DNA of 64,000 nt from Vicinamibacterales bacterium (GTDB lineage: Bacteria; Acidobacteriota; Vicinamibacteria; Vicinamibacterales; JAKQTR01): the NCBI GenBank assembly GCA_025456345.1, contig JALOKU010000009.1, positions 19,255-83,254 on the forward strand, in the 5' to 3' direction. A model generated the notes under the pieces. The model worked only from the letters and a program-made list of their open reading frames with translations, was not told the DNA's origin and ran no database searches. Shown here in pieces: positions 35,829-59,716 of the stretch. Numbering within the stretch: position 1 is the first letter of the stretch; every line of letters starts with the position of its first letter. Position numbers and translations under genes: made by a program.

Positions 35829-36395
35829 TCACGGCGACGCGCACCAGCCCGCGACGATGGCTGGATACGTCTCGAGCATCTTCAGGTAGCGCTCGCGATC
35901 GGGGTTCGTGGCGCGGCCGCCGGGGCTGTCGCTGAACTGCTCCACGATCGAGGCATGCTCCGCCTCGGTCAACACCTGGTCCGCGAGCTTGTAGAAGTAC
36001 TCGTCCTCGATCCGGATGTGCTCGCGGATGAGCTCCGTGTAGGCCCGCGCGTCGGCCGCCAGAGCCGAGGCGGCCGTCGGGTCCCGCTGCTGAAGCCGCT
36101 TCAGTTGCTTCTTCATCTTCGTCCCGTAGACCCGCCCGGCCTCGTGCTGCGAAACGAGCACGCTCACCACCGTCTGGTCGGGGCCGATGCCGTGCCTGGC
36201 TAGCAGCGGGAACAGCATCTCCTCTTCCCTGTCGTGGTGGCGGTCCGTGAAACTCTCGAAGAAGTCGAGCACGTCGACGAGCATCGGCATCGGGACCGGT
36301 TCGCCGCGTTCGAGCCGCCCGGCGACCGCGTCGAGGACGTCGAGCATGGAACTGAACCCGCGGTGCTCGTCCATCAGGACCGTGAGGAATCGCAT
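35829..36395 (-). CDS. Hemerythrin/HHE-domain protein
   Basis: 'LMDEH', 'HHDREEEMLFP', 'QHEAGR', 'EHIRIEDEYFY'. Confidence 0.88.
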   Translation of the reverse strand: MRFLTVLMDEHRGFSSMLDVLDAVAGRLERGEPVPMPMLVDVLDFFESFTDRHHDREEEMLFPLLARHGIGPDQTVVSVLVSQHEAGRVYGTKMKKQLKRLQQRDPTAASALAADARAYTELIREHIRIEDEYFYKLADQVLTEAEHASIVEQFSDSPGGRATNPDRERYLKMLETYPAIVAGWCASP

Positions 36396-36537
36396 GTCTG
36401 GGCTCTCCACTCCTTGCCGCGCGGCCACGCCGGACCGGCCCGTGGCACGCCGGGACGGCACCAGCCGCGAACGCGCTCATCCGAACCGGCTGGGGGCTGC
36501 GGAATCCCGGCAGGAGCAAGGGGACAGGCAAAAGGAT

Positions 36538-36553
36538 CGCAAGCTGCGTGCCG
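36538..36553 (-). promoter_or_regulatory. Putative sigma54 promoter for the hemerythrin gene
   Basis: Minus strand CGGCAC-GCAGC-TTGCG (GG-N10-GC) in the feoA-hemerythrin spacer. Confidence 0.5.
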
Positions 36554-36576
36554 GATCGGCCCGGATCAGGGCGTGT

Positions 36577-36816
36577 CTACTCGAGTTCGACGACGATGGC
36601 GCGGGCGACCGCTGGTTCGACGGCGAGTTCTGTGTGATCGCAGAGAAACACCACACCCGGGAACCGTTGGAGGACAGTCACGGTGGCACCGGGCGTCACG
36701 CCGAGGGCCATCAACCGATCGGCGCGGTCGGGATTCTCGCGCATGACCCGGAGCACCCGGCCGCTCGCCCCCGGGCGCATCGCCGACAGGCGCCGCGTCT
36801 TCTCAGAAGGTGACAT
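36577..36816 (-). CDS. feoA: Ferrous iron transport protein A
   Basis: 'LSAMRPG..GRV....RLMALGVTPGATVTV' SH3-like pattern; overlaps the end of feoB. Confidence 0.85.
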   Translation of the reverse strand: MSPSEKTRRLSAMRPGASGRVLRVMRENPDRADRLMALGVTPGATVTVLQRFPGVVFLCDHTELAVEPAVARAIVVELE

Positions 36817-38593
36817 GGAGTCCGCGCAGGATGGCGTTCAAGACGACGCCGGTGCCAAGCGCGATGACGGTGACCGCGCCCAGGATCCCCATGGCCGCTT
36901 TCAGGCCCTGCTCCTTGACCATCATGAGGAAGTTGGCCACGCACGGCACGAAGAGCGTCATCACGGTGAGCGCCACCACAGCCTGGACGCCGTCCAGCTC
37001 CCCCGCCTTCGACATCTGGAAGAGCCCGGCCGCGCCGTAGTCGCGACGCAGGAAGCCCATCACGAAGACGGTCGCGGCGTCTTTCGGCAGCCCGAGCAGC
37101 CCCGCCACGACGGGTTCCATCGCCTCGGTCAGCACCGTCAGCAGCCCAAGACGGCTGAGCGTGAACAGCAGCGCCGTGCCGAACAGGAACAGCGGGACGG
37201 CCTCGCCGAGGTACCAGCGCACGCGCAGCAGCGTCTTCCGGACGATGTTGCCGAGTTGCGGCAGCCGAAGCGGCGGAAGCTCCATGATGAATTCCGAGCG
37301 CTCGCCGGGGATGGTCCGCGCGGCGAGGAACCCCACCAGGAACATCTGGAGCATCACCACGCCAAACAACGTCACCAGGGCGAAGAACGACACGCCGCCG
37401 AGGATGCCGAGGATGGTGGCCAGCTGCGCCGAGCACGGGATGCCGAGCGCGAGCAGCAGGACCGCGATCAGCCGCTCCTTCGGCGTCCCGAGGATCCGCG
37501 TCGTCATCGTGGCCATCGTGTCGCAGCCAAGGCCGAGCACCATCGGCAGCACGGCCTTCCCGTTCAGCCCCATCGTGCGGAAGATCCGGTCGCTGAAGAT
37601 AGCCAGCCTGGGGATGTAGCCCGAATCCTCGAGGAACCCGAACACCAGGAAGAACGTGGCGACCACCGGCAGCACGATGGCGATGGCGTACGTGAGCCCC
37701 ATCGTGATGAGACCGTACTCGCCGACGAGAAAGTCCCTGGCGACCGCCCACGGCACGGCCCGGTTCACCAGGGCGATGGCGCCCGGGTTGATGAACTGCT
37801 CGAACAGGCCGCCCTCGATGAGGCCTACCAGCGTCTGGGCGCCGAACACCCCGACGGCGAGGTACATGCCGTAGAGCACGATGGCGAGAATCGGCAGGCC
37901 CGTCAGCGGCTCGCGGACGAGCCGTCCGAGACGCTCCTGGATGCGCGCGGCCGATCGCCGGCGATAGCAGCGATACTGGACCGCCAGATCGTGTGCGAGG
38001 TGCGCGTGGTCGCCGCGGTGCGGCGCATCAAACGCCGGCACCGCCGCGCGCCCGATCGCGTCGCGCAGTCCGGCAATGCCGCGCCCCTCGGTGGCCACCG
38101 TCTCGACCACCGGGATGCCCAGGCGCGCCGCCAGCCCCGCGGCGTCGATGACGATGCCGTGTACCCGGGCTTCGTCGATCATGTTCAGGACGAGCACCAT
38201 GGGCCGGCCGATGGCCGCCAGTTGCGAGGTGAGCATCAGGGCGCGCCGGAGGTTCCGGGCGTCCGAGACCTGGATGACGACGTCGGTCTGCCCGGCGTTG
38301 AGGATACGCCGCGCGACGAGTTCGTCCTCGGTGAGAGCCCCTTCGAGCGCCGTGACGCCGGGCGTGTCGACCAGTTCGCAGACTTCCCCGCCCAGCACGA
38401 CGCGCCCGGTTGTGAGCGCCACCGTCGTGCCGGGGTAGTTCGAGACGACGGCATACTGCCCGGTCAGACGGCCGAACAGGACGCTCTTGCCGACGTTGGC
38501 GTTGCCGACGAGCGCGATGCGGCGTGGGCGGGCCCGCAGCGTCAGAAGAGGGTCGGCTGCCGGTTCGCGCACCGCAGCCTGGGCGCAGGACAT
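36803..38593 (-). CDS. feoB: Ferrous iron transport protein B
   Basis: G1 GNANVGKS, NYPGTTV, DTPG, G4 NMID; 'LEDSGYIPRLA', 'GLGC', 'IPCSAQ', 'FVPCVA'. Confidence 0.92.
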   Translation of the reverse strand: MSCAQAAVREPAADPLLTLRARPRRIALVGNANVGKSVLFGRLTGQYAVVSNYPGTTVALTTGRVVLGGEVCELVDTPGVTALEGALTEDELVARRILNAGQTDVVIQVSDARNLRRALMLTSQLAAIGRPMVLVLNMIDEARVHGIVIDAAGLAARLGIPVVETVATEGRGIAGLRDAIGRAAVPAFDAPHRGDHAHLAHDLAVQYRCYRRRSAARIQERLGRLVREPLTGLPILAIVLYGMYLAVGVFGAQTLVGLIEGGLFEQFINPGAIALVNRAVPWAVARDFLVGEYGLITMGLTYAIAIVLPVVATFFLVFGFLEDSGYIPRLAIFSDRIFRTMGLNGKAVLPMVLGLGCDTMATMTTRILGTPKERLIAVLLLALGIPCSAQLATILGILGGVSFFALVTLFGVVMLQMFLVGFLAARTIPGERSEFIMELPPLRLPQLGNIVRKTLLRVRWYLGEAVPLFLFGTALLFTLSRLGLLTVLTEAMEPVVAGLLGLPKDAATVFVMGFLRRDYGAAGLFQMSKAGELDGVQAVVALTVMTLFVPCVANFLMMVKEQGLKAAMGILGAVTVIALGTGVVLNAILRGLHVTF

Positions 38594-38652
38594 CCGGTGC
38601 CTCTTACGCCGGCCCGCGAGTGGCGGTGCCGGCCGGGGCAATCGCCCCTCTA

Positions 38653-38669: not shown

Positions 38670-38684
38670 CACGCTCCCATCGTA

Positions 38685-41135
38685 TCAGATTCGGGGTGGC
38701 CCGGCACCCGATTCGGCCAGCCCCCGGAAACCCGTGCCGCGTACGAAGAACGGGCCGGCCGCCCCCGTGGAGCGGCCGGCCCGGCGTGCGATCGAGGTGA
38801 CGGGCGCCAAGAACGTGTAGAGCAGGCGCGCGGCGAACGTGCTGCCGTTGTACGGCCGGTTGCCGTACCCGGTTGTCAGGCCGCCCAGGTAGTCGATCCT
38901 CGGCTGATCGGTGCCCGGGAGGTTGATGGTCGCGAAATCGCTGATGCTGAGCTTCTCGTAGAAATACCCGATCGCGAAGCCGACTTTCGCGTTGAACGAG
39001 TACTTCAGGTCAATCATGAACTGCTGCCAGTCGTTGGTCACGTCCGGCAGCTGCTCGAACGTCCGGAAGCCGTTCGCGTCGATCGTGTTGAACAGGGTCA
39101 CGGTGCGCGGCCCGCCCAGCACGAAGGCGTTGTCCGAGTCGCTGTAGTTGTACGCGAACCGGATGCCCGTGTTCTTGAACATGTTGAGCAGGTCGACGTA
39201 GACGTCGACGTTGTTGACCTTCTCGTCGTTGTCGAGCGTCCAGTCGCGGTTCGGGTCCGTCCAGGACGGATCCGGCGGCGGGTTGGCGTTGCGCGCCCGC
39301 TGGTAGGTACTGAAGTCGTCGCGGCCGTAGTTGACGCCCATCGCGACGTGGTCGCTCGGCGTGTAGTTGACGCCGACGTTGTACGCCGTATTGGTCACGT
39401 CGAACAACCCGAACTCCATGCCCGGGCCGCCGTAGTGGTCGTCGGTGTACGTGACCGACGCCGTGAAGTCCATCGTCTGGAACGGCGTCAGGGTCACCAT
39501 GGCGTTGAAGCGGTTCCGCTCGCGGTCCGCTTCGTCGTAGAAACGCAGCCCGGGCTGCGCCGCCGCGTCCTCGACGGCCTGCTCGGAAAAGCCGAAGCCC
39601 GTGCGGTCGATGTACTCGTACCCCACGCGCACCGACAGCCACGCCGTGCCGACGGTGTCCCAGGTCAGCCGCATGCCCTGATCCCGCATGTCGTTGTGCG
39701 TCCGGCCCGTGCGGTCGTAGTTGTCGTAGAGGTAGCCGACGCGCAGGGTCGAGTAGGCCAGCGGGGAGAACGACACCGACGCGTCGAAGGTGTCACGGAT
39801 GACGCTGTGGCCTTCGGCGAACTCTCCAGGGGTCTCCTCGGACACCGCGTCGAATCGCACGTTCTCGTCGTACGGGAACGGCCGCGAGATGTTCGAATGG
39901 GTGTTGTGGCGGTATTTCGCGTTGACGCCCATCCAGCGCACCGGGCGCGACGTGAAGTTGACGAGCGCGTTGACGCCGCGCACCTTCGCCTCGGCGGTCG
40001 GCCTCGGGAGTGCGGCGAGGTGCGGGAACAGCGCCCACACGCTCGGCTGGTTGATCTGCGCGTTGCTCGTCCAGGGGATCAGATCGTCGTCGTTGCTCTG
40101 GTCGCTGACCTGGACGGTCCCGTTCAGCGTCGTGGTGCGGTTGAACTTGTACAACCCCATGAAGCTGACGACCGTCATGGAATTGTCCGGGAACGAGGAG
40201 ATCCGGCCGCGGGCCGCGCCGTTGCCGTTGCTGTAGCCGTTGGCGTCGTACGGGCCGCTCGGCGGCTGCAGGCCGTTGTTGTAGTCGGTGAGGTTCAGCG
40301 GGTTGTCCCACAGCACGTCGTTGAACTGGTTCGAGAACATCGAGCGCTCGAACGCGGCCCGGAACATGCCCTGCGGCCGCACCCACTCGACGGCGGCGCC
40401 GAAGTCGTTGGTGCGGTTGTCGAGCTGCACCGGCAGCTCGTTCGCGTTGCTGAACGCGTGAGACATGCCGAACGGCTGGTAGCCCGACTTCTTGGTGCTC
40501 GTGAAGTCGACCGACAGCGCGACGTCGTTCGTCATGTCGTAGCCGAACTTGACGCCGGTCGTATCGCGGCGCGACTGCATCTCGAAGGTCTGCGCCTGGG
40601 CTCGGTAGACCGAGGTCAGCTGGTTCTGCAGGTAGTTCGTGGGAATGGCCACAAACCCCGGAGGCAGCGGAGTCACCGGAGCCGGGTAGCGGCTCTTCTG
40701 CACCTGGTTCTGGACGGCATCGTCGAGCACCCAGGAGTTCGCCGACGCCTCGCGCCACGGCGTGAGGCAGTTGTAGCAGTAGTTCAGCGGGATCGAGTCG
40801 TACAGGAACGAGAACCTGAACTTGCTGTTCTGGTAGTCGACCGCGTACTGCTGGTCGCGGTAGCCGATGTTCTTCGCCGTCACGTCGAGCAGATAGCCGT
40901 CGGTCTGTTTCCCGAACACGCAATTGGTGAACAACCCGCTTCGCAGGTCGCGGTACCGCTCGAAGCGGGCCTCGTCACCATTCGCGTCCGTGACGCGGAC
41001 CCCGACGTCCGCCATGCCGGTCACGCCCCAGGGGGCGTTGCCCGAAGTCGCCTCGGCGGGCTTCGTCTGCGCCTTCGCGTGGATCGCGGAGGCGAGCAGA
41101 AGCGCCGCAGTCACCGTCACTACTCTGTTGCGCAT
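38685..41135 (-). CDS. mtrB: MtrB/PioB/MtoB family outer-membrane beta-barrel porin (natural end probably ...LLYTF at 38811)
   Basis: Signal peptide, 'ARFERYRDL', beta-strand pattern, C-terminal aromatic beta-signal; follows a decaheme gene; GAGGAGG ribosome-binding site. Confidence 0.85.
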   Translation of the reverse strand: MRNRVVTVTAALLLASAIHAKAQTKPAEATSGNAPWGVTGMADVGVRVTDANGDEARFERYRDLRSGLFTNCVFGKQTDGYLLDVTAKNIGYRDQQYAVDYQNSKFRFSFLYDSIPLNYCYNCLTPWREASANSWVLDDAVQNQVQKSRYPAPVTPLPPGFVAIPTNYLQNQLTSVYRAQAQTFEMQSRRDTTGVKFGYDMTNDVALSVDFTSTKKSGYQPFGMSHAFSNANELPVQLDNRTNDFGAAVEWVRPQGMFRAAFERSMFSNQFNDVLWDNPLNLTDYNNGLQPPSGPYDANGYSNGNGAARGRISSFPDNSMTVVSFMGLYKFNRTTTLNGTVQVSDQSNDDDLIPWTSNAQINQPSVWALFPHLAALPRPTAEAKVRGVNALVNFTSRPVRWMGVNAKYRHNTHSNISRPFPYDENVRFDAVSEETPGEFAEGHSVIRDTFDASVSFSPLAYSTLRVGYLYDNYDRTGRTHNDMRDQGMRLTWDTVGTAWLSVRVGYEYIDRTGFGFSEQAVEDAAAQPGLRFYDEADRERNRFNAMVTLTPFQTMDFTASVTYTDDHYGGPGMEFGLFDVTNTAYNVGVNYTPSDHVAMGVNYGRDDFSTYQRARNANPPPDPSWTDPNRDWTLDNDEKVNNVDVYVDLLNMFKNTGIRFAYNYSDSDNAFVLGGPRTVTLFNTIDANGFRTFEQLPDVTNDWQQFMIDLKYSFNAKVGFAIGYFYEKLSISDFATINLPGTDQPRIDYLGGLTTGYGNRPYNGSTFAARLLYTFLAPVTSIARRAGRSTGAAGPFFVRGTGFRGLAESGAGPPRI
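38746..38783 (-). terminator. Intrinsic terminator after mtrB
   Basis: 12-bp stem CGGGCCGGCCGC / GCGGCCGGCCCG followed by UUCUU on the minus strand. Confidence 0.6.
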
Positions 41136-41150
41136 CGCAATCCTCCTCAA

Positions 41151-42106
41151 TTAGCGCAGGAAGGCCTTGCCGTTCGGAGAGTTGGAGCCGTGCACCATCT
41201 GGTGGCACACGACGCAGGAACGGCCGTAGATCCTGTTGGCGTTCTGCGAGTTCTTCAGCAGGTAGCCATCGTAAATCGTCGGGGGGTGCCGCGACGTCAC
41301 GTGGCAGCGCTGGCAGAGGTAGGGCTGCTTGGCGACGAGCATCCGGTCGTTGTTCGAGCCGTGCGGGTCGTGGTGGTGGCGCAGCTGTCGGCCACCGGCG
41401 CGTGCTCCCACATGTACGGGCCGCGCTTCTCGGCGTGGCAGCTCGTGCAGCTCTCGTCAATCGTCGTGCCCGTCTTGAGCAGTCTCTGGTTCGAGCTGCC
41501 GTGCACGTTGTGGCACGACGCGCACGTCATCTTGCCTTCGCGCACCGGCATGTGGTTGAACCGGTTCTGCTTGTTCACGACGGCCCGGTGGCAGGACGCG
41601 CAGAGCGCAGACTGGTCCTTCGCCTTCAGCAGTCCGGCATCGCTCTTCGGCGAGTGGATGCTGTGGCAGCTCATGCAGCCGACGTTCCGGTTGTCGTGCT
41701 GGCTGCCGGCCCAGAGGGCGTGGGATTTGCGGTCGTGGCAGCTCGTGCACAGCGCGCTCGCGTCCTGCGCCGACAGCTTCGAGATCTGCGTGATTTTCGT
41801 TTTGTCGCCGCCGGCCTCGGCGTGGGCCTTCCCCGCGCCGTGGCAGCTCTCGCAACCCATCGTCGCGTTGGGGGTCTTCGGGTTGAACGCGCGGGCGTGC
41901 GCGCCGGCCTTGGTGACGGCGCTCTGGCCTTCGTGACAGCCCAGGCACGTGTCCTGACCGGCGTAGTCGGCGGCGGTGGCCACCGGGGCCTTGGCCGCCG
42001 CCGGCTTCTGCGTCGCCGCCGATGCCGTCCCCACGGACGCGAGCCAGGCGGCCACCAGGCCGGCCAGCGCTACCCCTCGGATGAGGGTCCTGCAAACAGA
42101 ATGCAT
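41151..42106 (-). CDS. mtrA: MtrA/DmsE/MtoA family periplasmic decaheme cytochrome c, frameshifted at about 41373 (sequencing error or pseudogene)
   Basis: Seven CxxCH in the upstream frame, a broken 8th motif (CAT-[ac]-HDPHGS) and two more (CQRCH, CVVCH) in the downstream frame ending 'HGSNSPNGKAFLR'; 'EKRGPYMWEHAPV' family motif. Confidence 0.88.
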
Positions 42107-42302
42107 GGCGTGCTCCTTGAGTAGAATCCAGCAGGATCCGGCCAAAGGACCGAATCCGCCGATTCGAGTGCAGACAGAATGCCCGTTCACGCCCGGAGAA
42201 CTACCACACACCTCCCGAATGAACAGTCGGGCTGTTTGCTGGTCAATCGTCAACTAAATCGACGCATTCGCAGATAACCGTCGGTTGACGACAGATATTG
42301 CC

Positions 42303-42369: not shown

Positions 42370-43752
42370 CTACTCGATGGTGTGGCAGAGGCTGCAGTCC
42401 TGGGAGATCACCTTCCCGGCCCGGCTCTTGTGGCTGTCGTCGTGGCAGCGGAAACACCCCGCATAGGAGCTCGGGCCGGGGTCGCTGTGCCCGACGTTGT
42501 TCGGGTACGTTCCCCAGGTGACGTTCATGGCAGGAAACACGTTGCGGGCGAACACATGCTGCGCGGTGGCCACGGCCCGGTCCACCGATGCCTTCGGCAC
42601 GTTCGCGGCATCCTTGTAGAACGCCGTGAGGCCGTTCTGGATGCCCCGGAAGGCTGCGGCCCTATCGGGATAGGCCACCTTCAACACCTTGACCGCCTCG
42701 CGCCGGATGAACGGCATCGCCGAGTCGAAGCCGCCGGCCGCAATCGCCTCGTCGACGGCCCGCTCGGCGGAGTACGCAAAGGTGTGCGACGGCCGGTTGT
42801 GGCAGTCCACGCAGTCGAGTACGCGCCGCTCGCCCTTCAACGACGCGGCGTCGGCGACACCATCGGCGAGGAACTCCGTGACGTTGCCCTTGCCATCGTC
42901 GAGCCTCACGTACGGAATGACCTGGCGCTTGTCGTCGGTCGCGATGTACTCGATGCGGTTCTGCCGCGAGACGTGCCAGTGGATGCCGGTGGCGGACTTG
43001 TCGAGCCGGTTGACCCCGCCGATGTGCATCCGCAGCGTCGTCACCGATTCGGTGTTCGCCTCGTCGTCGGCGTACGTGCGGATGGTGCGGATCTTGTCGC
43101 CGTGGAACTTCTCCGGCCAGTGGCACTGCTCGCAGGTGTCGCGGGCCGGGCGCAGGTCCGTGACCGGCGACGGGATCGGCCGCGAGTGCGTGTTGAAGGT
43201 GACGGCGTAGACCTGCCGGAGCCCCGACATCTTGGACTTGACGAACCAGCTGGCGCCCGGCCCGATGTGGCACTGCACGCACACCACGCGGGAGTGCGGG
43301 CTGTCCTGGTAGCCGGCCCATTGCGGTTCCATCACCTCGTGGCACAGCTGGCCGCAGAACTGCGGAGAGTCCATGTACTCGATGCCGGCAAAGGCGGCCA
43401 CCAGCACGATCAGGAGGTTCGCGATCGTGGACGCGAGGAAGATCGCCGTGGCGCGGCGCTGGGTGACGTCGTTCAGGTCGATCTTCGGCCACGAGGGGCG
43501 CCAGGCGGTCAATCCGGCCGCATCGCGCCGGTGGGCCAGCCAGACCCCGAGGGGCATGAGGACGAGGCCCGCGACGAACAGCCCGGGGAGAATCAGGAAG
43601 AACAGCATCCCCACGTACGGGTTGGCGTGCATGCCCGCCAGTTCGAGGAGCAGGAACGCCAGGAAGAGGATGGCGCCGGTCGTGGTCAGCGCGGCCCCGA
43701 AGATCGTGATGGCGTTCTTGAACAGCGAGAAACGCGTGTGCGCTGGGCTCAT
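42370..43752 (-). CDS. NapC/NirT-domain membrane multiheme cytochrome c (ImcH-like)
   Basis: Three N-terminal TM helices; CGQLCH (CX3CH), CVQCH, CEQCH, CVDCH, CFRCH, CSLCH; NapC motif 'KSKMSGLRQ'; extra C-terminal periplasmic domain. Confidence 0.82.
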   Translation of the reverse strand: MSPAHTRFSLFKNAITIFGAALTTTGAILFLAFLLLELAGMHANPYVGMLFFLILPGLFVAGLVLMPLGVWLAHRRDAAGLTAWRPSWPKIDLNDVTQRRATAIFLASTIANLLIVLVAAFAGIEYMDSPQFCGQLCHEVMEPQWAGYQDSPHSRVVCVQCHIGPGASWFVKSKMSGLRQVYAVTFNTHSRPIPSPVTDLRPARDTCEQCHWPEKFHGDKIRTIRTYADDEANTESVTTLRMHIGGVNRLDKSATGIHWHVSRQNRIEYIATDDKRQVIPYVRLDDGKGNVTEFLADGVADAASLKGERRVLDCVDCHNRPSHTFAYSAERAVDEAIAAGGFDSAMPFIRREAVKVLKVAYPDRAAAFRGIQNGLTAFYKDAANVPKASVDRAVATAQHVFARNVFPAMNVTWGTYPNNVGHSDPGPSSYAGCFRCHDDSHKSRAGKVISQDCSLCHTIE

Positions 43753-50852: not shown

Positions 50853-52202
50853 ATGAGACTTCCGTTCACCCGAAGGGCGGCCGCCGGCGAAACCTCGCCA
50901 GGCGTGCACCCGCAGCCGCTCTGGAGCTACCGCCCGCAGTCGGACCGCGAGGCTGGCGACGCCGTCGTCTCGAACCTGCTGCTGCACTGGTTTCCCTCGA
51001 AGGTCTACAAGCCATCGTTGGCATGGAACTACTCGGCGTGGCTCGGCACCATCTCCGGCGCGCTGTTCTTCCTGCTGGTGCTGTCCGGCCTGCCCCTGAT
51101 GTTCCTGTACGTCCCGTCGGTGGAGCGCGCCTACCAGTCGGTGAAGGACATCGAGTACGTCGTGACCTTCGGCTGGTGGATTCGCGCCGTGCACCGAATC
51201 GGGGCGCACCTGATGGTGGTCGCGGTTGTGCTGCACCTGGCGCGGGTGTTCTTCACCGGCGCGTACAAGAACGGCGTCGGCCAAGGGCAGCAGCGCGAAT
51301 GGAACTGGGTCATCGGCGTCGTCATGCTGCTGCTGACGTTGTTTCTGTCTTTCACCGGCTACCTGCTCCCGTGGGATCAGCTCGCGTTCTGGGCCGTGAC
51401 GGTCGGGACCAACATTGCATCGGCGGTTCCCGGGATCGGGCCCCGGATCCGGGAACTCCTGATCGGCGGGCGCGCGATCGAGCAGGCCACCCTGATTCGC
51501 TTCTACGTCCTGCACATCATCGTCCTCCCCGGCGCCCTCGGCGGCCTCTTCGCGTATCACATGTGGCGCATCCGGAAGGATGGCGGGCTGGCGAGGGCCG
51601 ATGCCGCGGCTCTGGCGCCCGACGCGAAGGACACCGGACCGGTCCCGACGAAGACCTACACCCTGCTCGGCGTCGCCCGCGGCACGTCTCCGGCGGTCAC
51701 GGCGCGTTCCCCCGAAGCTCCGGACCAGACCGTCAATGCGGTCCCCGACCTCACGCGGCGAGCCCTGATCGTGATTCTCGGCACGTTCGCGCTCGTGAGC
51801 ATCCTCGCCAGCGCCATTCCATCCCCGCTGGAAGAACCGGCGAACGCGCTGATCACGCCGAACCCGGCCAAGGCCCCGTGGTACTTCCTCTGGCTGCAGG
51901 AAATCGTCACCGACACCACGATTCGGCTCGGGTCACTCACGATCAACGGCGCCTTTCTCGGCGGCGTGATTCTGCCAGGCCTGCTGGTCGGCCTCCTGAC
52001 GGTCTGGCCCTGGCTGGACAAGTCGGCCGTCTCCACGGCAGGGCTCTGGTTCCCGCGAAGCCGCCGGCGTCAGAACCTGCTGTTCATCCTGGCGATGCTG
52101 TTCATCCTGGCCTTCACGTTCGTCGGCATGTTCATGCGCGGGCCGTACTGGAACCTCTACTGGCCGTGGGAGACGTGGCCGGGCATTCCCGGGAGGATCT
52201 GA
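50853..52202 (+). CDS. Cytochrome b of a Rieske/cytb complex (b6-like and subunit IV regions fused)
   Basis: RAVHRIGAHLMV...LHLARVF, FTGYLLPWDQLAFWA, RFYVLH...YH; Qo motif reads APWYF. Confidence 0.92.
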   Translation: MRLPFTRRAAAGETSPGVHPQPLWSYRPQSDREAGDAVVSNLLLHWFPSKVYKPSLAWNYSAWLGTISGALFFLLVLSGLPLMFLYVPSVERAYQSVKDIEYVVTFGWWIRAVHRIGAHLMVVAVVLHLARVFFTGAYKNGVGQGQQREWNWVIGVVMLLLTLFLSFTGYLLPWDQLAFWAVTVGTNIASAVPGIGPRIRELLIGGRAIEQATLIRFYVLHIIVLPGALGGLFAYHMWRIRKDGGLARADAAALAPDAKDTGPVPTKTYTLLGVARGTSPAVTARSPEAPDQTVNAVPDLTRRALIVILGTFALVSILASAIPSPLEEPANALITPNPAKAPWYFLWLQEIVTDTTIRLGSLTINGAFLGGVILPGLLVGLLTVWPWLDKSAVSTAGLWFPRSRRRQNLLFILAMLFILAFTFVGMFMRGPYWNLYWPWETWPGIPGRI

Positions 52203-52203: not shown

Positions 52204-53448
52204 ATGGAGAAACGAACCAACTCCCCGTTTCCCAGGATCGATCGCCCGGTGCTGGCCGCCATCGGGATTGTGCTCGTGGGGGCGACCGTCTTCTTCGCCT
52301 GGAGCGACCGCCAGCACGACTACAAGTACTACCAGTACGCCTTCCGCGGCATGGTGGCGGAGAAGCTGGGCGCGGAGCGCGCCGCGACCGTACCGTCCGG
52401 GCTGCAGCAGGTCTGGGTGCCCGGCTTGCGCCGCGCCGATCGGTGCGTGACCTGCCACCAGGCCGTCTCCTGGAAGGGGTTCGAGACCGCCGAGGAGCCC
52501 CACCGGACGCATCCGGGCGACCTCCTGAAGTCCCATCCGCCGGAGCGGTTCGGGTGCAGCGCGTGTCACGGCGGGCAGGGGTGGGCCATCGACACCGCCG
52601 CTGCGCACGGCGAGGTGGCGCACTGGGAGGAGCCGCTGCTCGGCAAGCCGCTCGGCGAGGCGTATTCGCTGACCGACAACAAGGCCGCGCTGATGCAGAT
52701 GAACTGCAATATCTGCCATCGCTACGAGCGGGCGACCAAGGGCGCGGAGATGATCAACCTGGCCAAGGACCTCGTCCAGGAGAAGGGCTGCCGGGCCTGC
52801 CACGTGATCAACGGCCGCGGCGGCACGATCGGCCCCGATCTGACGTGGGTCGGCGACAAGGCCCCGGAACAGTACGACTACAGCCGCCTGTCGGGCCAGA
52901 CGACGGCGTTCGCCTGGCACGTGGCGCATTTCAAGGACCCGCGGGCGCTCGTGCAGGATACGGTGATGCCGAACTTCCACCTGTCCACCAAACAGGCGCA
53001 GGCGCTCGCGATGCTCATGCTCTCCTGGCGCAAGGCGCCCTTCGACGCGGCGTTCCTCCCGGGCGTGCCGCGCACGGACCCGCAGACCGCCGATGAGCGG
53101 AAGGCCGAAGAGGACATGAAGACCGGGCCGGGCGCCTGGTTCGTGCAAACGGGCTGCTTCGTGTGCCACTCGATCGCCGCCCTGAAGGTGCGCAGTCCCG
53201 CCCAGATCGGCCCCGACCTGTCCACGGCCGTCGAGGACACGCAGAAGCGGTTCGGCGTGACCGTCGACCAGTTCCTGAAGAACCCGACCGGCACGATGTC
53301 GGTGGTGCTGTCGCGCCAGATCGTGCTGACGCCGGAACAGAAGGAGACCGCGATTCAGAAGTTGCGCGAGGCGTTCGCCGAGTATCAACGCCTCGTCGCC
53401 GAGGGCAAGAACCCGCTGGCGCCCCCGGTGGAGGCCGCCCCGAAGTAG
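52204..53448 (+). CDS. Membrane-anchored pentaheme cytochrome c
   Basis: N-terminal TM; CVTCH, CSACH, CNICH, CRACH, CFVCH. Confidence 0.88.
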   Translation: MEKRTNSPFPRIDRPVLAAIGIVLVGATVFFAWSDRQHDYKYYQYAFRGMVAEKLGAERAATVPSGLQQVWVPGLRRADRCVTCHQAVSWKGFETAEEPHRTHPGDLLKSHPPERFGCSACHGGQGWAIDTAAAHGEVAHWEEPLLGKPLGEAYSLTDNKAALMQMNCNICHRYERATKGAEMINLAKDLVQEKGCRACHVINGRGGTIGPDLTWVGDKAPEQYDYSRLSGQTTAFAWHVAHFKDPRALVQDTVMPNFHLSTKQAQALAMLMLSWRKAPFDAAFLPGVPRTDPQTADERKAEEDMKTGPGAWFVQTGCFVCHSIAALKVRSPAQIGPDLSTAVEDTQKRFGVTVDQFLKNPTGTMSVVLSRQIVLTPEQKETAIQKLREAFAEYQRLVAEGKNPLAPPVEAAPK

Positions 53449-53548
53449 ACGGGCGATGCACGGAGGCGCAGGCTTTCCCCGGCCCGCCTGTTCCCCTGCC
53501 TCCTTGAACGAGTGAGCCGGCCGTGACTGCTACGTGGAGGACATGCAC

Positions 53549-55408
53549 ATGAGTTGGATTCGCTCCCGATCCGCTGCCTGGGCGACGATTGGCGCCCTGG
53601 CGCTGGCGCTGTTCGTCAGCCGTTGCGCGCCGAGCGCGCCCAAGAAGGACGCCAAGAAGGCCGGCGGCGGCACCTCGGACATCGCCGTCGCCGCCCAGAA
53701 GACCTACGTCGCCCCGGGCGACCTGGACGAGTACTACCTGTTCTCGTCTGGCGGGCACTCCGGCCAAATCTACGTCTTCGGCGTGCCGTCGATGCGCCAC
53801 ATCTCGACGATTCCCGTCTTCACCCCCTACCCCGCCACCGGCTACGGCTTCGACGACGATTCGAAGAAGATGCTCGGGAACCTGACCTGGGGAGACGTGC
53901 ACCACCCGGCCCTCTCTGAGACCAACGGCGACTACGACGGCCGTTGGCTCTTCGTGAACGAGATGAACGGGCGGGTGGCGCGGATCGACCTGCGCGACTT
54001 CAAGACGAAGCAGATCCTCGGGCCGATCCCCAACGTCTCCGGCAACCACGCGTCCGCGTTCGTCACGCCGAACAGCGAGTACTCCGTGATGGCCTCGCGT
54101 TTCTCGATTCCCATCCCGAAAGGCACGGCCCTCGAGATCGCGAAGTACGCCACCGACTTCAAGGGCGTCATCACCGGGATCAAGATCGATCCCAAGAGCG
54201 GCGAGATGTCCTTCGGCTGGCAGGTGGTGATGCCGCCGTTCAACTACGACCTGGGCGACGCCGGGAAGAAGGCGTCCGACGGGTGGGTCTTCTTCACCTC
54301 GTACAACGCGGAGCGCGCCACCGGCAAGCTGGAGGTCACCTCGACCCAGCGCGATCGCGACTACATCGCGATGGTCGACTGGAAGATGGCGGAGAAGCTG
54401 GCCGCCGAGGGCAAGGGCACGCTCATCGGGGGCGTCAAGGTCCTGGACCCGAAGGAACTGCCGGGCCTGGTGTACCTCCTCCCCTGCGGCAAATCGCCCC
54501 ATGGCGTCGACGTGGCGCCCGACGGCAACTGGATCGTCGGCTCGGGCAAGCTCCAGGGCGTGACGACGGTATTCAACTTCGAGAAGATCCAGACGGCCAT
54601 CCGGAACAAGGACTTCACCGGCGAGGAAGACGGCATCCCGGTCCTGAAGTACGAGTCCATCAAGGACGCCGAGGTCCCGGTCGGCCTCGGGCCGCTGCAC
54701 ACCCAGTTCGGCACGGACGGCTACGCCTATACGTCGCTCTTCGTGGACAGCGCGGTCGCGAAGTGGAAACTCGGCACCTGGGAGGTCGTGGACAAGGTCC
54801 CGATGTCGTACTCGATCGGCCACCTCACGGCGGCCGAAGGTGACACGGTCAGTCCCGACGGCAACTACCTGGTCGGCCTGAACAAGCTGTCGCACGGGCG
54901 GCACCTGTCGGTCGGCCCGTCGCAGCCCGAGTCGTCGCAGCTGGTCGACATCACCGAGGAGAAGATGAAGCTGCTGTACGACGCGTTCACCGAGCCCGAG
55001 CCGCACTACGCGCAGATGGTGAAGGCCGACAAGATCCACCCGATCGAGGTGTATCCGAAGGAGGAGAACAAGCATCCGCACGCCATCTGGGACGTCAAGG
55101 ACGCCAGCGTGACGCGCAACGGCAACAAGGTCCTCGTCAAGATGATCGCGGTCCGTTCCACCCTCACGCCGACGGACTTCGAGCTGAAGGAGGGCGACGA
55201 GGTGACGATCGCCATCACCAACATCGAGCAGACAACCGATGAGCTGCACGGGCTCGGCATCCTCGACTACAACATCAACCTGGTCGTGGATCCCGGAGAA
55301 ACGAAGACCGTGACGTTCAAGGCGAAACGGGGCACGTTCCCGTTCTACTGCACGAACTTCTGCTCCGCACTCCACCAGGAGATGCAGGGCTACATGATCG
55401 TCCGCTAG
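53549..55408 (+). CDS. nosZ: Nitrous oxide reductase, clade II (Sec-pathway signal peptide)
   Basis: SGGHSGQ; CuZ histidines DVHH, GNH, SPHG, GPLH, IGH, EPHY; CuA motif H...CTNFCSALHQEM; no twin-arginine motif and no C-terminal heme domain. Confidence 0.96.
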   Translation: MSWIRSRSAAWATIGALALALFVSRCAPSAPKKDAKKAGGGTSDIAVAAQKTYVAPGDLDEYYLFSSGGHSGQIYVFGVPSMRHISTIPVFTPYPATGYGFDDDSKKMLGNLTWGDVHHPALSETNGDYDGRWLFVNEMNGRVARIDLRDFKTKQILGPIPNVSGNHASAFVTPNSEYSVMASRFSIPIPKGTALEIAKYATDFKGVITGIKIDPKSGEMSFGWQVVMPPFNYDLGDAGKKASDGWVFFTSYNAERATGKLEVTSTQRDRDYIAMVDWKMAEKLAAEGKGTLIGGVKVLDPKELPGLVYLLPCGKSPHGVDVAPDGNWIVGSGKLQGVTTVFNFEKIQTAIRNKDFTGEEDGIPVLKYESIKDAEVPVGLGPLHTQFGTDGYAYTSLFVDSAVAKWKLGTWEVVDKVPMSYSIGHLTAAEGDTVSPDGNYLVGLNKLSHGRHLSVGPSQPESSQLVDITEEKMKLLYDAFTEPEPHYAQMVKADKIHPIEVYPKEENKHPHAIWDVKDASVTRNGNKVLVKMIAVRSTLTPTDFELKEGDEVTIAITNIEQTTDELHGLGILDYNINLVVDPGETKTVTFKAKRGTFPFYCTNFCSALHQEMQGYMIVR

Positions 55409-55514: not shown

Positions 55515-56153
55515 ATGCAAGGCTTCTTCGCGCGACTGAACCAGTCTCTCGCCCGCCCCCTCGGTGTTGCGCCGCGGCTGCTCGTCGTGGCGTCGGCACT
55601 CCTCCTGGTCGCCGTGTATCTCTTTCCGCTGTGGAACCTGACGATGTTCGCTCCGCAGTACCCTGAAGGCCTCCGCCTGGACATCTACAGCTACAAGCTG
55701 GTCGGCGGGAACGGGGGGCAGGACATTCCCGAGATCAACATCCTCAACCACTACATCGGCATGCGGGATCTCGTGACCGACGACTTCACCGAATTCAAGT
55801 GGCTGCCGTTTGTCGTCGGCGCCCTCGGCTTGCTCTACCTCCGGGCGGCGGTGATGGGCACCGTGGGCGGGCTCGTCGACGTCCTGGTGCTCAACATCTA
55901 CTTCTCGGCGTTCGCGCTCTGGTCCTTCGGCTACAAGATGTACGTCTACGGGCACAACCTGCTGCCCACGGCGGCGGTGAAGGTGGAGCCGTTCATGCCT
56001 CCGATGTTCGGGGGAACGCAGCTGGCGAACTTCGAGGTCTACTCGTATCCGCAGGCGGGCTCGTACGCGATGGGCCTGTCGTCCCTGCTGCTCGTTGCGG
56101 CGTTGGTCGTGGCCTGGCGCCAGTCCCGCGCCGCCAGCCGGCAAGGCACGTGA
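55515..56153 (+). CDS. nosB: NosB-like membrane protein of clade II nos clusters
   Basis: 'PLWNLTMFAPQYPEGL', 'INILNHYIGM', 'YGHNL', four TM; located right after nosZ. Confidence 0.82.
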   Translation: MQGFFARLNQSLARPLGVAPRLLVVASALLLVAVYLFPLWNLTMFAPQYPEGLRLDIYSYKLVGGNGGQDIPEINILNHYIGMRDLVTDDFTEFKWLPFVVGALGLLYLRAAVMGTVGGLVDVLVLNIYFSAFALWSFGYKMYVYGHNLLPTAAVKVEPFMPPMFGGTQLANFEVYSYPQAGSYAMGLSSLLLVAALVVAWRQSRAASRQGT

Positions 56154-57529: not shown

Positions 57530-58425
57530 TCGCTTTCCGCGGTTTCCGCAAGCAGTTCGGGACGCACGTCGCCGTGGCGGATCTCACGCTGGAGATCGGG
57601 CGGGGAGAGACGCTCGCCCTGCTCGGACCGAATGGTTCAGGGAAGACCACCTCGCTCAAGGCGGCCGCAGGCCTCATCACGCCGACCGCCGGGGAGGTGC
57701 TACTCGGTGAACCGGGCCGGAGCGCGCACGCGCCATCGGCGCGCCAGGCTGTGTCATACCTGCCCCAGCGGGTGACCTTTCCCGACACCCTGACGGGCCG
57801 TGACGTCATCGAGTTCTACCGGCGCCTCCGCGGCTCGCCCGCGTCACGCACCGACGAGGTGCTGCGGGTTGCCTCGCTCAATGGCGCCGCCGGTCGGGCC
57901 GTGGGCACCTATTCGGGCGGTATGACGCAGCGCCTGGGCCTGGCCGTCGCCGTGCTGCCGAACGCCCCCGTCTTCCTCCTGGACGAGCCGACCGCCGCCC
58001 TCGATCCCGACGGGCTGGCGGCCTTCTACTCGACCGTTGAGCGGCACGCCGCCGAAGGGCGAACGGTGCTCTTCACCTCTCATCAACTGGGCGATGTCGA
58101 GCGTCTCGCGGATCGCTTTGCCGTCCTGGTGGCCGGGCGGCTGGTCGCCCTGCTGACGCAACGCGAACTGCACGATAGCCTCGCGCAGCGTGGCCTCATG
58201 CGCGTCCGGGCGGCCGGCCACCTCGAGGACGCCGTGGGGCGGCTCCGCTCGATTGCGCCTGATAGCCACCTGGAGGCCGACGAAATCGTGGTCCCCGGCC
58301 CTCCGTCGCTGCGCCCCGCGGCCCTCGAGGCGCTGCGCGACGCCGGCGTCGAGATCCGCGGCCTGACCGCCGAGGAGGGCCGTCTGGACAGGTTCTATCG
58401 CGAGCTGGTCGGAGACTCCGCATGA
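57526..58425 (+). CDS. nosF: ABC ATP-binding protein NosF
   Basis: GPNGSGKT, YSGGMTQR, LDEPT; follows nosD. Confidence 0.88.
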   Translation: MIAFRGFRKQFGTHVAVADLTLEIGRGETLALLGPNGSGKTTSLKAAAGLITPTAGEVLLGEPGRSAHAPSARQAVSYLPQRVTFPDTLTGRDVIEFYRRLRGSPASRTDEVLRVASLNGAAGRAVGTYSGGMTQRLGLAVAVLPNAPVFLLDEPTAALDPDGLAAFYSTVERHAAEGRTVLFTSHQLGDVERLADRFAVLVAGRLVALLTQRELHDSLAQRGLMRVRAAGHLEDAVGRLRSIAPDSHLEADEIVVPGPPSLRPAALEALRDAGVEIRGLTAEEGRLDRFYRELVGDSA

Positions 58426-58868
58426 AGGCCTTCGTGGCGGCCGCGCTCGCGCTGCTGGCGTCGGCCTGCGGCAGCGGCGTTCCAGGGCCTGTGCCTCTCG
58501 ACACGCGCACCGACGCCTGCGCCGAGTGTCGCATGGCCGTCTCGAGCGGCCGCTTCGCCTCCCAGATCGTCGCACCAGGCGAGGAGCCGCGTTTCTTCGA
58601 CGACCTCGGATGCCTGGCGGCCTACCTCGGCACCCGCTCCACGGTCCCGCCGAGAGCGGTCGCCTACGTCGCCGATCACCGCTCGGGCGAATGGGTGACT
58701 CTCGCCTCGGCGGTCTTCACGCGGGTGCCGGGCCTCGAGACGCCGATGGGCTCTCACGTGGTCGCGCACGCGTCGGCGGCCTCACGCGATGGCGATCCCG
58801 ATGTGCAGGGCGGCTCGGCCGTGGACGTACGCGCATTCTTCAAACGCGCCCTGCCGGACGGTTCCTGA
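58422..58868 (+). CDS. nosL: Copper chaperone lipoprotein NosL
   Basis: Lipobox 'ASAC', CAECRM, FDDLGC, TPMG. Confidence 0.9.
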   Translation: MKAFVAAALALLASACGSGVPGPVPLDTRTDACAECRMAVSSGRFASQIVAPGEEPRFFDDLGCLAAYLGTRSTVPPRAVAYVADHRSGEWVTLASAVFTRVPGLETPMGSHVVAHASAASRDGDPDVQGGSAVDVRAFFKRALPDGS

Positions 58869-59716
58869 TGACGGCCGTGTCGACGATCCACGCGATTGCC
58901 CTCTGCGCCCGACAGGAACTGGTCCTGGCGTACCGGTCGCGATGGACCCAGACGTTTGCCGTCGCCTTCGCCGTTCTCGCGCTCGCCGTGGCGGTCTCCG
59001 GCTACGTGCTCTCGGGCGGCAGCGGTGTCCAGGACTTCTCTCGCACCGCCGCGTCGCTCGTGCAGCTCGTGATTCTGCTCGTCCCGCTGACCGCCCTCCT
59101 GCTCGGCGTCCTCACCCTGGCCTCCGACCGCGGCAACGCGGAACTGCTCTTCTCGCAGCCCGTGTCGCGCGCCGCGATCCTGCTCGGCCGCGTGCTGGGC
59201 CTGTACCAGGCGCTGATTTCGGCCCAGGCGATCGGGTTCGGTGCGGCAGGCCTCGTCATCTACTCGCAGGCGGGCGAAGACGGCGTGACCGGTTTCCTCG
59301 TGGTGATCGCGGCGGCGTTCGTCCTGACGGGGGTATGCCTGGGCCTGGCCGCCGTCATCGCGGCCGGCAACATCGGCAGGCGGCGCTCGCGTGCGCTGGC
59401 CGTGGCCCTCGTGGTCTGGCTCGTGCTTGTGGTGCTCGCCGACCTTGCGGCCCTCGGCGCGGCGTCCCTGCTCCGATCTGGCGCCGCGTCCCGCCTCCTC
59501 ATCACGGCCGCCATCGTCAACCCGGTTGGCGCCGTGCGGACGGCCGCGCTCCTGTTGATTGATGGCACCGCGGCCTTCGGTTCGGCATCCCTGGCGCTCC
59601 TGAGGTTCTCGGGAGGTCCCCTCCGCGCCGGCCTGCTTCTCGCCGCGTCGCTCGTTCTCTGGCTCGTGCTGCCGTTCTGGGCCGCTTCGCGGCGCCTCTC
59701 TCGCGCCGATATCTGA
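58868..59716 (+). CDS. nosY: ABC permease NosY
   Basis: Six TM, 'ELLFSQPVSR..ILLG', 'NPV'; TGATG coupling with nosL. Confidence 0.88.
   Translation: MTAVSTIHAIALCARQELVLAYRSRWTQTFAVAFAVLALAVAVSGYVLSGGSGVQDFSRTAASLVQLVILLVPLTALLLGVLTLASDRGNAELLFSQPVSRAAILLGRVLGLYQALISAQAIGFGAAGLVIYSQAGEDGVTGFLVVIAAAFVLTGVCLGLAAVIAAGNIGRRRSRALAVALVVWLVLVVLADLAALGAASLLRSGAASRLLITAAIVNPVGAVRTAALLLIDGTAAFGSASLALLRFSGGPLRAGLLLAASLVLWLVLPFWAASRRLSRADI

Follow-up and report, generated by a model that had tools for sequence, protein, structure and literature searches.

ImcH of Geobacter sulfurreducens is an inner-membrane quinol oxidase that serves high-potential acceptors. Proteins of this type are defined by three N-terminal transmembrane (TM) helices, an adjoining atypical CX3CH heme motif and then five to nine CX2CH motifs, and a 2018 survey counted 19 homologs in Acidobacteria and described imcH without neighboring mtrAB or mtoAB (PMC6295460). 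Homologs of MtrAB and PioAB in Acidobacteria are in print (PMC10654088), as are multiheme cytochromes and nosZ in acidobacterial metagenome-assembled genomes (MAGs) (PMC8100337), and for the clade II nosZ (nosZII) clusters of Acidobacteriota a figure legend names cytochrome b, cytochrome c, Fe-S and Rieske genes, in a study where N2O reduction is shown by one Vicinamibacteria isolate (PMC13122619, ISME J 2026). Genes of these kinds stand together in the locus described here, which lies in a window of 64,000 nucleotides, the whole stretch of DNA that was analyzed (G000:C64:19255-83254), from a Vicinamibacterales MAG of 5.07 Mb in 253 contigs (90.8% complete, ~68% G+C), and everything reported below as absent from the genome is to be read as not found in that 90.8%-complete assembly. 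A block for extracellular electron transfer and an N2O reductase (nos) operon diverge there from a 106-bp intergenic region (48236-48341). We consider it reasonably probable that the locus is a conserved anaerobic-respiration neighborhood of separable modules, each joined to the quinone pool, in which nos is a neighbor of the electron conduit by descent.

Genes were picked by codon-position G+C and CXXCH counts and then named by Pfam and NCBIfam profile searches, while hydrophobic segments were read from a simple hydropathy window rather than a TM predictor. A preliminary description of this DNA had read the two divergent blocks near 48.3 kb as a single island carrying electrons from extracellular donors to N2O. 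Its named genes are all present where it placed them and the divergence is confirmed, but the gene that diverges from nos is a radical-SAM gene (46952-48235) and not a cytochrome, and in the left block, whose gene identities stand, the "11-heme c plus cytochrome b" is two separate open reading frames (ORFs) rather than one; feoA is here placed downstream of feoB (36577-36816), a correction. Its figure of about 32 heme c motifs agrees with the 31 intact ones counted: 11, 5 CXXCH plus 1 CX3CH, 9 (a tenth being destroyed) and 5. An Rfam search of 33000-62000 at the gathering threshold gave no matches. The left block, in its order on the minus strand, is as follows.

46952..48235, minus strand: variant radical-SAM protein, 427 amino acids (aa), divergent from the nos operon (NF045502 188.6 bits, PF04055 24.5 bits)
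46627..46869, minus strand: orf80, a conserved 80-aa Cys-containing ORF just downstream of the radical-SAM gene (tblastn 56-76% identity, same position in the relatives searched)
45990..46205, minus strand: small Trp/Cys-rich ORF of ~71 aa, first gene of the cytochrome operon (46-89% identity, same position in relatives)
44622..45980, minus strand: 11-heme c-type cytochrome, c11 (11 CXXCH; PF14522 71 bits)
43777..44706, minus strand: b-type cytochrome membrane subunit, HydC/FdnI-like (PF01292 44.4 bits, TIGR01583 32.1 bits; b561/FdnI-like)
42370..43752, minus strand: ImcH-type inner-membrane cytochrome, 460 aa (motifs, hydropathy, PF03264 NapC/NirT 33.4 bits, NrfH TIGR03153 62.2 bits)
41151..42253, minus strand: MtrA-like periplasmic decaheme cytochrome, broken, in two frames (CXXCH counts, family models, ortholog alignment)
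38685..41150, minus strand: MtrB/PioB-type outer-membrane porin, intact 821-aa ORF without CXXCH (PF11854 254.5 bits)
36803..38641, minus strand: FeoB ferrous-iron transporter (PF02421 162.8 bits, PF07670 94.7 bits, PF07664 51 bits)
36577..36816, minus strand: FeoA, 79 aa, overlapping the feoB end (PF04023 51.3 bits)
35829..36461, minus strand: hemerythrin-domain protein, last gene of the left block (PF01814 69.7 bits)

Two inner-membrane cytochromes are encoded in this block. The ImcH-type protein has hydrophobic segments at residues 17-35, 47-65 and 103-121, a CX3CH motif (CGQLCH) at 133-138 and CXXCH motifs at 158, 207, 314, 433 and 453, which is the architecture that defines ImcH, the comparison being with the published description and not with the Geobacter sequence; the membrane partner of the conduit is of the ImcH type, not a tetraheme CymA. 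The second is divided between c11, which has a signal or anchor at its N terminus and a single hydrophobic segment at its C terminus, and the b-type subunit, with four hydrophobic segments and an uncertain start codon (44706 or ~44625). A single-polypeptide CbcL is not what the window encodes, the ORFs at 44622-45980 and 43777-44706 being separate, and the same split is found in relatives; by domain content c11 and the b subunit together resemble a split CbcL/MtoC-type protein. Ahead of them lie the small ORF, with an AAGGAG-like site before its ATG and no match in Pfam or NCBIfam, a ~420-nt non-coding stretch, and orf80, which has no match in NCBIfam, the only collection searched with it. The radical-SAM protein has no relative in the PDB at E <= 0.01 and falls in Atlas with unnamed or generic radical-SAM clusters that are commonest in Acidobacteriota. 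In the family loci examined, the radical-SAM gene and the two small Cys-containing ORFs accompany the ImcH-type gene.

The porin matches PF11854 over residues 57-780, far above the cut-off of 23, and with a decaheme gene adjacent it belongs to MtrB_PioB; under the stricter NCBIfam model TIGR03509 it scores 174.2 against a cut-off of 240, and its orthologs in relatives are 40-80% identical. No MtrC stands alongside MtrAB, as the preliminary description had noted, and across the whole genome nothing scores above 20.8 bits with the MtrC/OmcA model TIGR03507, whose cut-off is 209.3. The feoB start lies ~44 nt past the mtrB stop, and hemerythrin orthologs come after FeoB or ImcH in relatives. MtrA homologs are numerous (4591 proteins at E <= 1e-20 among 8000 scored), and all 120 of those listed carry the generic name "DmsE family decaheme c-type cytochrome".

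The mtrA gene is broken in this genome. Seven CXXCH motifs lie in frame 1 (41297-42253) and two in frame 2 (41151-41456), and alignment to an intact ortholog places a 1-nt deletion plus a substitution at 41373-41374, within the codon for the second Cys of heme motif 8. The window thus does not encode ten CXXCH in a single protein of ~320 aa, having 7 + 2 motifs with motif 8 destroyed, and its N-terminal fragment scores 182.3 with TIGR03508, just under the cut-off of 192.2. The intact ortholog (L005:1111-2094) has 10 CXXCH, scores 260.9 against the same cut-off of 192.2 and matches PDB 6r2q_A (E 1.1e-64), an entry that we take to be the Shewanella MtrCAB structure, its depositor's molecule name being misleading. 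All 12 relatives examined have mtrA in a single frame with 10 motifs, although one of them contains an internal stop. Logan contigs of four sequencing runs were compared with 38500-58400. Run X1 contains 0.93 of the sampled words and is possibly the source sample; no part of its contig depth of 84.4 shows an insertion at the break, so that the deletion is not confined to the MAG. In run X2 a single contig (depth 16 of 87) gains a base there and has two substitutions, which together restore a Cys codon, and two contigs of the RNA-library run X23 have the extra base at the break. Intact mtrA alleles exist in closely related sequences. True pseudogenization of mtrAB, which the preliminary description had itself named as counting against its reading, is probably the case for the sampled dominant population, in which the MtrB ORF is intact and the extracellular-electron-transfer module is probably impaired owing to the frameshift in heme motif 8 of MtrA. 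Elsewhere in the genome a second, distant porin-cytochrome-like pair (G000:C82:744-3398) consists of a 4-CXXCH ORF followed by an MtrB-like ORF with 25% identity to the window MtrB, and it could partly substitute for the broken conduit.

The plus-strand block begins 106 nt from the radical-SAM start and has the following genes.

48342..50324, plus strand: flavo-Fe-S oxidoreductase, 660 aa, with GltD-like NAD(P)H/FAD and 4Fe-4S domains, first gene of the nos operon (PF07992 106.6 bits, PF14691 65.5 bits, PF00037 37.9 bits)
50183..50842, plus strand: Rieske 2Fe-2S protein, true start probably near 50300 (PF00355 45.8 bits)
50853..52202, plus strand: cytochrome b, b6 fused to a subunit-IV-like part (PF00033 151.6 bits, PF13631 137.9 bits; ExtP/ExtQ-like in NCBIfam)
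52204..53448, plus strand: membrane-anchored pentaheme cytochrome c, c5 (5 CXXCH, one N-terminal hydrophobic segment; PF00034 45.8 bits)
53534..55408, plus strand: NosZ, Sec-dependent, clade II (TIGR04246 891.1 against a cut-off of 625)
55515..56153, plus strand: nosB-position membrane protein, 212 aa (several hydrophobic segments; position after nosZ)
~56150-57529, plus strand: nosD (PF05048 115.9 bits)
57526-58425, plus strand: nosF (PF00005 97.5 bits)
58422-58868, plus strand: nosL (PF05573 21.2 bits, under the cut-off of 24)
~58865-59716, plus strand: nosY (PF12679 53.4 bits)

The assignment of NosZ to clade II, already made in the preliminary description, holds: beside the high score with the Sec-type model, the model for the twin-arginine translocation (TAT) type, TIGR04244, gives 435, under its cut-off of 625, and the first 30 residues, read by eye rather than with a signal-peptide predictor, contain no RR pair. 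A scan with the flavoprotein, one genome per species, returned 157 relatives, and the best 80 of these 157 loci (67-83% identity) come from Vicinamibacterales, Vicinamibacteria, Thermoanaerobaculia, other Acidobacteriota MAGs, Anaeromyxobacteraceae and an Anaeromyxobacter strain. The flavoprotein gene heads the operon in all of these best 80, tblastn found Rieske, cytochrome b, c5 and NosZ in each of the 52 loci (52/52) with at least 5.6 kb downstream of it, and nosB-D-F-L-Y were found wherever the flank reaches, with nosD-F-L-Y in the same order. The nosB-position protein, which matches nothing in Pfam or NCBIfam, is conserved after nosZ at 57-80% identity in related loci, with one outlying 40% match elsewhere in L040. 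Conservation of the Rieske-cytochrome b-c5-NosZ set in 52/52 loci marks the operon as a clade II cluster of the Anaeromyxobacter type that supplies its own Rieske/cytochrome b quinol oxidase and cytochrome c, and hence as one of a known kind; c5 is the probable electron donor to NosZ. A soluble flavo-Fe-S protein ahead of a Rieske/cytochrome b complex is an odd arrangement for N2O respiration.

The family of the window comprises 22 species genomes counting G000, at one genome per species, and these are related, so that the counts are not of independent events; regions were compared by tblastn with the window proteins, and several assemblies, G003 and G006 among them, are in many pieces or have numerous frame breaks. 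Of the 22 genomes, 21 have an ImcH-type ortholog and 11 have NosZ, while 18 of the 21 besides G000 have an MtrB homolog (E <= 0.001). The cytochrome block stands without nos at the site in G003, G009, G013, G014, G016, G017, G020, G021 and, as a second copy, G002 (G002:C3), while the nos operon lies elsewhere in G014 and G020 and its arrangement is cut by contig ends in G011 and G012. Two backbone genes lie beyond nosY in the window.

59726..61957, minus strand: DUF5916 protein, backbone gene flanking the nos insertion site (PF19313 63.7 bits)
62094..62801, plus strand: Crp/Fnr-family regulator, backbone gene (PF00027 84 bits, PF13545 49.8 bits)

Where nos is missing, one or both of these genes abut the radical-SAM gene (G003, G014, G020, G021, G002:C3, G016 and G017), which makes nos a cassette that is either present or missing at one fixed place. 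MtrAB varies as well. At G002:C8 nos lies beside a block without mtrAB, in which imcH is directly followed by feoB, and in the window's genus G004, G005 and G008 keep only hemerythrin, imcH, the small ORF, (orf80) and the radical-SAM gene, without c11, the b subunit, MtrAB or Feo, while G015 and G009 have two divergent MtrAB-like pairs (21-24% MtrB identity). A wastewater run, X5, adds a relative that is ~96% identical (71 differences in 1698 aligned letters): its 6490-nt contig joins the imcH end (42370) to the feoB start (38604), 180 other letters replacing mtrA and mtrB, and its 7747-nt contig matches 44188-48281 and is then unlike the window, so that this relative lacks both MtrAB and the nos junction. 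Beyond the family, c11 and ImcH genes occur in only two of the 55 related nos loci whose upstream flank reaches 8 kb or more, and both are the records of G015 and G010. This independent gain and loss of nos and MtrAB argues against a dedicated wire between the blocks, which, as far as gene content and order can tell, appear to be neighbors by descent at a variable locus.

Three side observations concern the same site. A lone nosL-like gene (42-48% identity) lies between the radical-SAM gene and DUF5916/Crp-Fnr in G020 (L082), G017 (L091) and G016 (L109), the G020 copy scoring 25.8 bits with Pfam NosL, and it may be either an operon remnant or an independent copper chaperone. In G004 (L104) a RACo-like gene and another radical-SAM gene follow a Rieske-cytochrome b-c5 set; G005 is represented by L105 and G008 by L106. 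The left flank of the window (29049-35645) encodes a 1297-aa pyruvate:ferredoxin oxidoreductase, a dihydroorotate-dehydrogenase-like protein, an ORF without family and a DUF302 protein, and in the genus relatives whose flank was compared (G002, G004, G005 and G007) this backbone is conserved at 51-96% identity.

The two blocks also differ in the motifs that precede them, which are pattern matches and point to regulation only provisionally.

48282..48297, in the divergent intergenic region, no strand assigned: perfect palindrome TATGAC-N4-GTCATA, ~50 nt before the flavoprotein ATG
46506..46522, minus strand: sigma-54-like motif TGG-N10-GC (TGGTATCAAATTTGCAT), ahead of the small ORF and c11 (consensus match only)

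In 42 of the 80 related loci the core of the palindrome, TGAC-N4-GTCA, occurs no more than 260 nt ahead of the flavoprotein gene, mostly at a similar distance and in both Acidobacteriota and Myxococcota. Of the nos-adjacent family loci, three of the four checked have it (G002:C8, G010 and G015), and no exact match was found in G006, an assembly with many frame breaks; it is in none of the 12 family loci that lack the flavoprotein-nos module at that site, and no copy precedes the cytochrome operon. Traveling with nos and absent without it, the palindrome is probably the operator that the nos module brings with it, and a Crp/Fnr-type regulator would be its likely user. The sigma-54-like -24/-12 motif sits in an unusually A+T-rich patch, and under a strict pattern a similar motif occurs in five of the 10 regions compared, the window included. 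Crp/Fnr orthologs (62-85% identity) lie beside the radical-SAM/DUF5916 genes in nine loci of relatives, and the gene is retained at the locus whether or not nos is there, so that this regulator could serve either side. A shared FNR box for both blocks was also sought: with the consensus TTGAT-N4-ATCAA and up to two mismatches the window has 14 matches against 5.24 expected, none of them in the radical-SAM/flavoprotein intergenic region or upstream of the cytochrome operon, and the search of those upstream regions gave the idea no support.

On the reading of separable modules, the ImcH-type and split-CbcL-type cytochromes of the first module would oxidize quinol at the inner membrane, electrons would cross the periplasm to MtrA inside MtrB and leave by this conduit, without MtrC, for Fe(III), humics or another acceptor outside the cell, and FeoAB would take up the resulting Fe(II). 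In the second module the Rieske/cytochrome b complex would oxidize quinol on its own account and the pentaheme cytochrome would pass electrons to NosZ. The nos operon, at its fixed site between the radical-SAM gene and DUF5916/Crp-Fnr, would be kept, lost or moved independently of MtrAB, and the modules would be linked by a common quinone pool and perhaps by the neighboring Crp/Fnr regulator, with no dedicated wire between them. Two parallel quinol-oxidizing branches are accordingly the most likely arrangement suggested by the genes, and the weaker alternative of the preliminary description, a switch between Fe(III) and N2O as acceptors, is reasonable. Outward flow is more plausible than Fe(II) uptake because ImcH homologs have been reported only from Fe(III) reducers, in which their authors read them as quinol oxidases (PMC6295460), because feoAB lies next to mtrB, and because neither a high-potential iron-sulfur protein (HiPIP) nor RuBisCO was found (no matches to PF01355, the PioC-type HiPIP family, and none to RuBisCO; MtoD was not among the partners searched for).

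The single donor-to-N2O unit of the preliminary description is not supported by this comparison. The nos operon has its own quinol oxidase and its own conserved operator and is without the cytochrome block in 53 of 55 loci, the block is without nos at that site in nine family loci, nos adjoins a block without MtrAB in G002:C8, the X5 relative has neither MtrAB nor the nos junction, and MtrA is broken. Fe(II)-driven N2O reduction fares no better, as the ImcH type, FeoAB by MtrB and the lack of RuBisCO and HiPIP favor outward flow or alternative acceptors. In short, the parts of the proposed island are separable, and its conduit is broken in the genome of the window.

Several observations weigh against treating the modules as mere neighbors. 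The back-to-back arrangement recurs in relatives: nos is head-to-head with the radical-SAM-led block in five of the 11 NosZ-bearing genomes, G000, G002 (C8), G006, G010 and G015, and is so by coordinates alone in G019 and probably in G007, whose nos contig starts with a radical-SAM fragment and whose cytochrome-block contig ends at orf80; all are of one family. G004, G005 and G008 carry Rieske-cytochrome b-c5 (57-71% identity) opposite the radical-SAM gene, without the flavoprotein and without NosZ, and this set beside an ImcH block hints that the two sides may be more deeply connected. G036, a genome of another family, has a Crp/Fnr gene and MtrA-MtrB-FeoB followed after 7 kb by a convergent nos operon; the DUF302 and hemerythrin neighbors that it shares show a rearrangement of this neighborhood and not an independent event. 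Selection for linkage of conduit and nos is thus possible. The radical-SAM gene may serve both modules, since a homolog stands beside nos in 14 of 67 loci counting L005 (13 loci outside the family, at 47-51% identity, within 600 nt of the nos operon start and on either strand), and together with the small ORFs it could form a maturation or cofactor system common to both. The outward direction of flow in the conduit is one that we infer from gene content, as we do the operon boundaries. Finally, no listed contig in the runs compared bridges position 48281, a matter taken up below with the junction.

The respiratory inventory of the genome bears on the first alternative. NrfA is present (461.5 bits) with an NrfH-like tetraheme protein beside it, NirK was not found (19.9 bits against 296.3), and for NirS there are two weak partial Cytochrom_D1 matches (30.3 and 19.0 bits), neither convincing, so that the whole-genome check for nirS and nirK proposed in the preliminary description, now made, finds neither convincingly. 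NarG (<=98 bits) and NapA (<=54 bits) were not found with fragments of five of the six molybdopterin-enzyme loci, the sixth (C147) not having been scanned; scanned as domain fragments, the five have as best names formate dehydrogenase alpha, the DmsA/YnfE family and PhsA. Heme-copper oxidases are of the aa3 type, the cbb3 type and a third, divergent kind (G000:C86:17001-18419, L095; COX1 178 bits, weak matches to CtaD/CcoN), which may be an unusual oxidase or a relative of NO reductase. Twenty ORFs have at least four CXXCH; among very large ones are an ORF with 30 CXXCH and adjacent ORFs with 26 + 16 that are maybe one gene (C229:3167-5569, C161:1323-5118). By gene content the genome resembles a non-denitrifying N2O reducer.

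Such an inventory would suit an ecological coupling in which Fe(III) reduction yields Fe(II), Fe(II) and nitrite react abiotically to N2O, and the adjacent NosZ consumes it, with Crp/Fnr control under anoxia and selection for the linkage. Work by Onley et al. from 2018 is said to show Anaeromyxobacter coupling Fe(III) reduction, chemodenitrification and NosZ, reportedly without describing the genes as linked. The idea of iron reducers with clade II nosZ promoting chemodenitrification is in print (bioRxiv 10.1101/2022.01.14.475290), and the combination of NosZ and NrfA with no NirK and with weak Cytochrom_D1 matches only, the recurrence of the arrangement in the family and a Crp/Fnr gene always nearby all agree with it. 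Plausible as the coupling is, we regard it as unlikely, in that the modules vary independently, MtrA is broken here, and the palindrome accompanies nos only, none preceding the cytochrome operon, which has the sigma-54-like motif instead.

Reductive iron acquisition would give the left block another purpose, the cytochromes and MtrAB reducing Fe(III) for import by FeoAB, with hemerythrin as an O2 or iron sensor and the iron feeding heme and Fe-S synthesis. The co-orientation of mtrB, feoB, feoA and hemerythrin with very short gaps speaks for this, as does feoB following mtrB in G036 too and directly following imcH where MtrAB is missing. The 26 intact c-heme motifs (11 + 6 + 9) and the b-type subunit exceed the needs of assimilation, however, and G004, G005 and G008 keep imcH and hemerythrin without feoAB, which leaves this explanation improbable. 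We give equally little credence to a revised form of the single unit, in which conduit and nos make one iron-nitrogen respiratory system, either from Fe(II) or another extracellular donor to N2O or as a loop from Fe(III) through Fe(II) and chemodenitrification to N2O, under a shared Crp/Fnr regulator and radical-SAM protein; if it were true, the radical-SAM protein, along with its pair of small Cys-rich partners, would mature or provide a component that both branches use.

Electron uptake is still less probable. MtrAB would then work inward like MtoAB and PioAB, from Fe(II), reduced humics or a cathode by way of the inner-membrane cytochromes to the quinone pool, with N2O as terminal acceptor, and it has in its favor that MtrAB lacks MtrC as MtoAB and PioAB do, that Fe(III) reducers and Fe(II) oxidizers alike have CbcL/MtoC-type proteins (PMC6295460), and that PioA/PioB homologs are reported in Acidobacteria (PMC10654088). 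Against it stand the reporting of ImcH homologs from Fe(III) reducers only (PMC6295460), the HiPIP and RuBisCO searches without a match, the position of feoAB after mtrB, which suits Fe(II) production or uptake into the cell, the broken MtrA, and the occurrence of nos beside a block that has no MtrAB.

The junction itself was compared with the read contigs. Runs holding at least half of the sampled words are wetland metagenomes (4 runs under 4 study codes; possibly one campaign, possibly the source); runs with small shares were set aside, and stretches that no run covers were given no weight. The match of the X5 contig ends at 48281, immediately left of the palindrome, as does that of a 299-nt X23 contig, and a contig of X1 begins at 48278, which together suggest a branch in the assembly graph. 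The depth of exact-match contigs is 16.9-20.1 left and 13.6-20.4 right of the junction in X1, and 8.7-9.4 left and 5.9-8.7 right in X2, and this similarity of depth in two runs supports a single genome. That the contig is an artefact joining two organisms at a strain-variable point near 48281, as these endpoints and the lack of a bridging contig might be taken to mean, is hardly credible given the like depths and the same junction in the independently assembled relatives G002:C8, G006, G010 and G015. The RNA run X23, which may include DNA, also has contigs at 92-98% identity on mtrB, the mtrA 3' end, imcH, the radical-SAM gene, the flavoprotein gene and nosZ; left-block pieces are at 96-98% and nos pieces at ~93%, possibly from different organisms. 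Co-expression of the blocks was considered from this run and is not shown by it, as the library may include DNA and the identities differ between blocks.

At window positions 18147-27689 lie an HlyD-type membrane-fusion protein and two MacB/FtsX-type ABC permeases, unrelated to the conduit and nos.

Among the Acidobacteriota that carry clade II nosZ in soils, Vicinamibacteria are reported to be the most prevalent (PMC13122619), which makes their respiratory wiring relevant to N2O sinks. The family also supplies natural variants for testing iron-N2O interaction, with nos and MtrAB, nos without MtrAB, and MtrAB without nos. A limited search of open-access text found neither a compact imcH/split-cbcL/mtrAB/feoBA operon, nor its pairing within one family with a nos cassette at a fixed site, nor the conserved nos palindrome; the supplements of PMC6295460 and PMC13122619, outside that search, may list the proteins or the arrangement.

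Compared with known systems, the ImcH-type protein shares with ImcH of G. sulfurreducens the three N-terminal membrane segments, the CX3CH motif followed by a CXXCH series and the NapC/NirT-like similarity, but is shorter (460 aa with 6 motifs against 495-519 aa with 7 motifs in Geobacter), and imcH adjoins mtrAB here and in most of the window's family, unlike in the genomes of the 2018 survey (PMC6295460). Like CbcL/MtrH/MtoC, c11 and its partner offer a multiheme c part (11 motifs; published range 3-23) followed by an FdnI/HydC-like b part (PMC6295460), whereas CbcL/MtrH/MtoC is one polypeptide with a C-terminal b-type domain of ~6 TM helices and the window has two overlapping ORFs in different frames, of which the c-type ORF retains one C-terminal membrane segment and the b subunit ~4. 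As in MtrAB, MtoAB and PioAB, an MtrA-family decaheme gene lies beside an MtrB/PioB porin gene, and as in MtoAB and PioAB there is no MtrC; the window differs in that mtrA is frameshifted (9 intact motifs) and MtrB falls under the NCBIfam subfamily cut-off. The partners of the known conduits are CymA/MtoD or PioC, while here they are the ImcH-type and split CbcL-type cytochromes, with feoBA and hemerythrin after mtrB. From the Anaeromyxobacter-type clade II nos cluster, which has the same gene order and 63-77% protein identity in the Anaeromyxobacter record L061, nothing essential differs except that the operon stands head-to-head with a radical-SAM/cytochrome block, and Anaeromyxobacter is reportedly alike too in having clade II NosZ and NrfA without NirS or NirK and many multiheme cytochromes. 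One family thus combines a Geobacter-type quinol oxidase (ImcH, split CbcL) with a Shewanella/Sideroxydans-type MtrAB and FeoAB.

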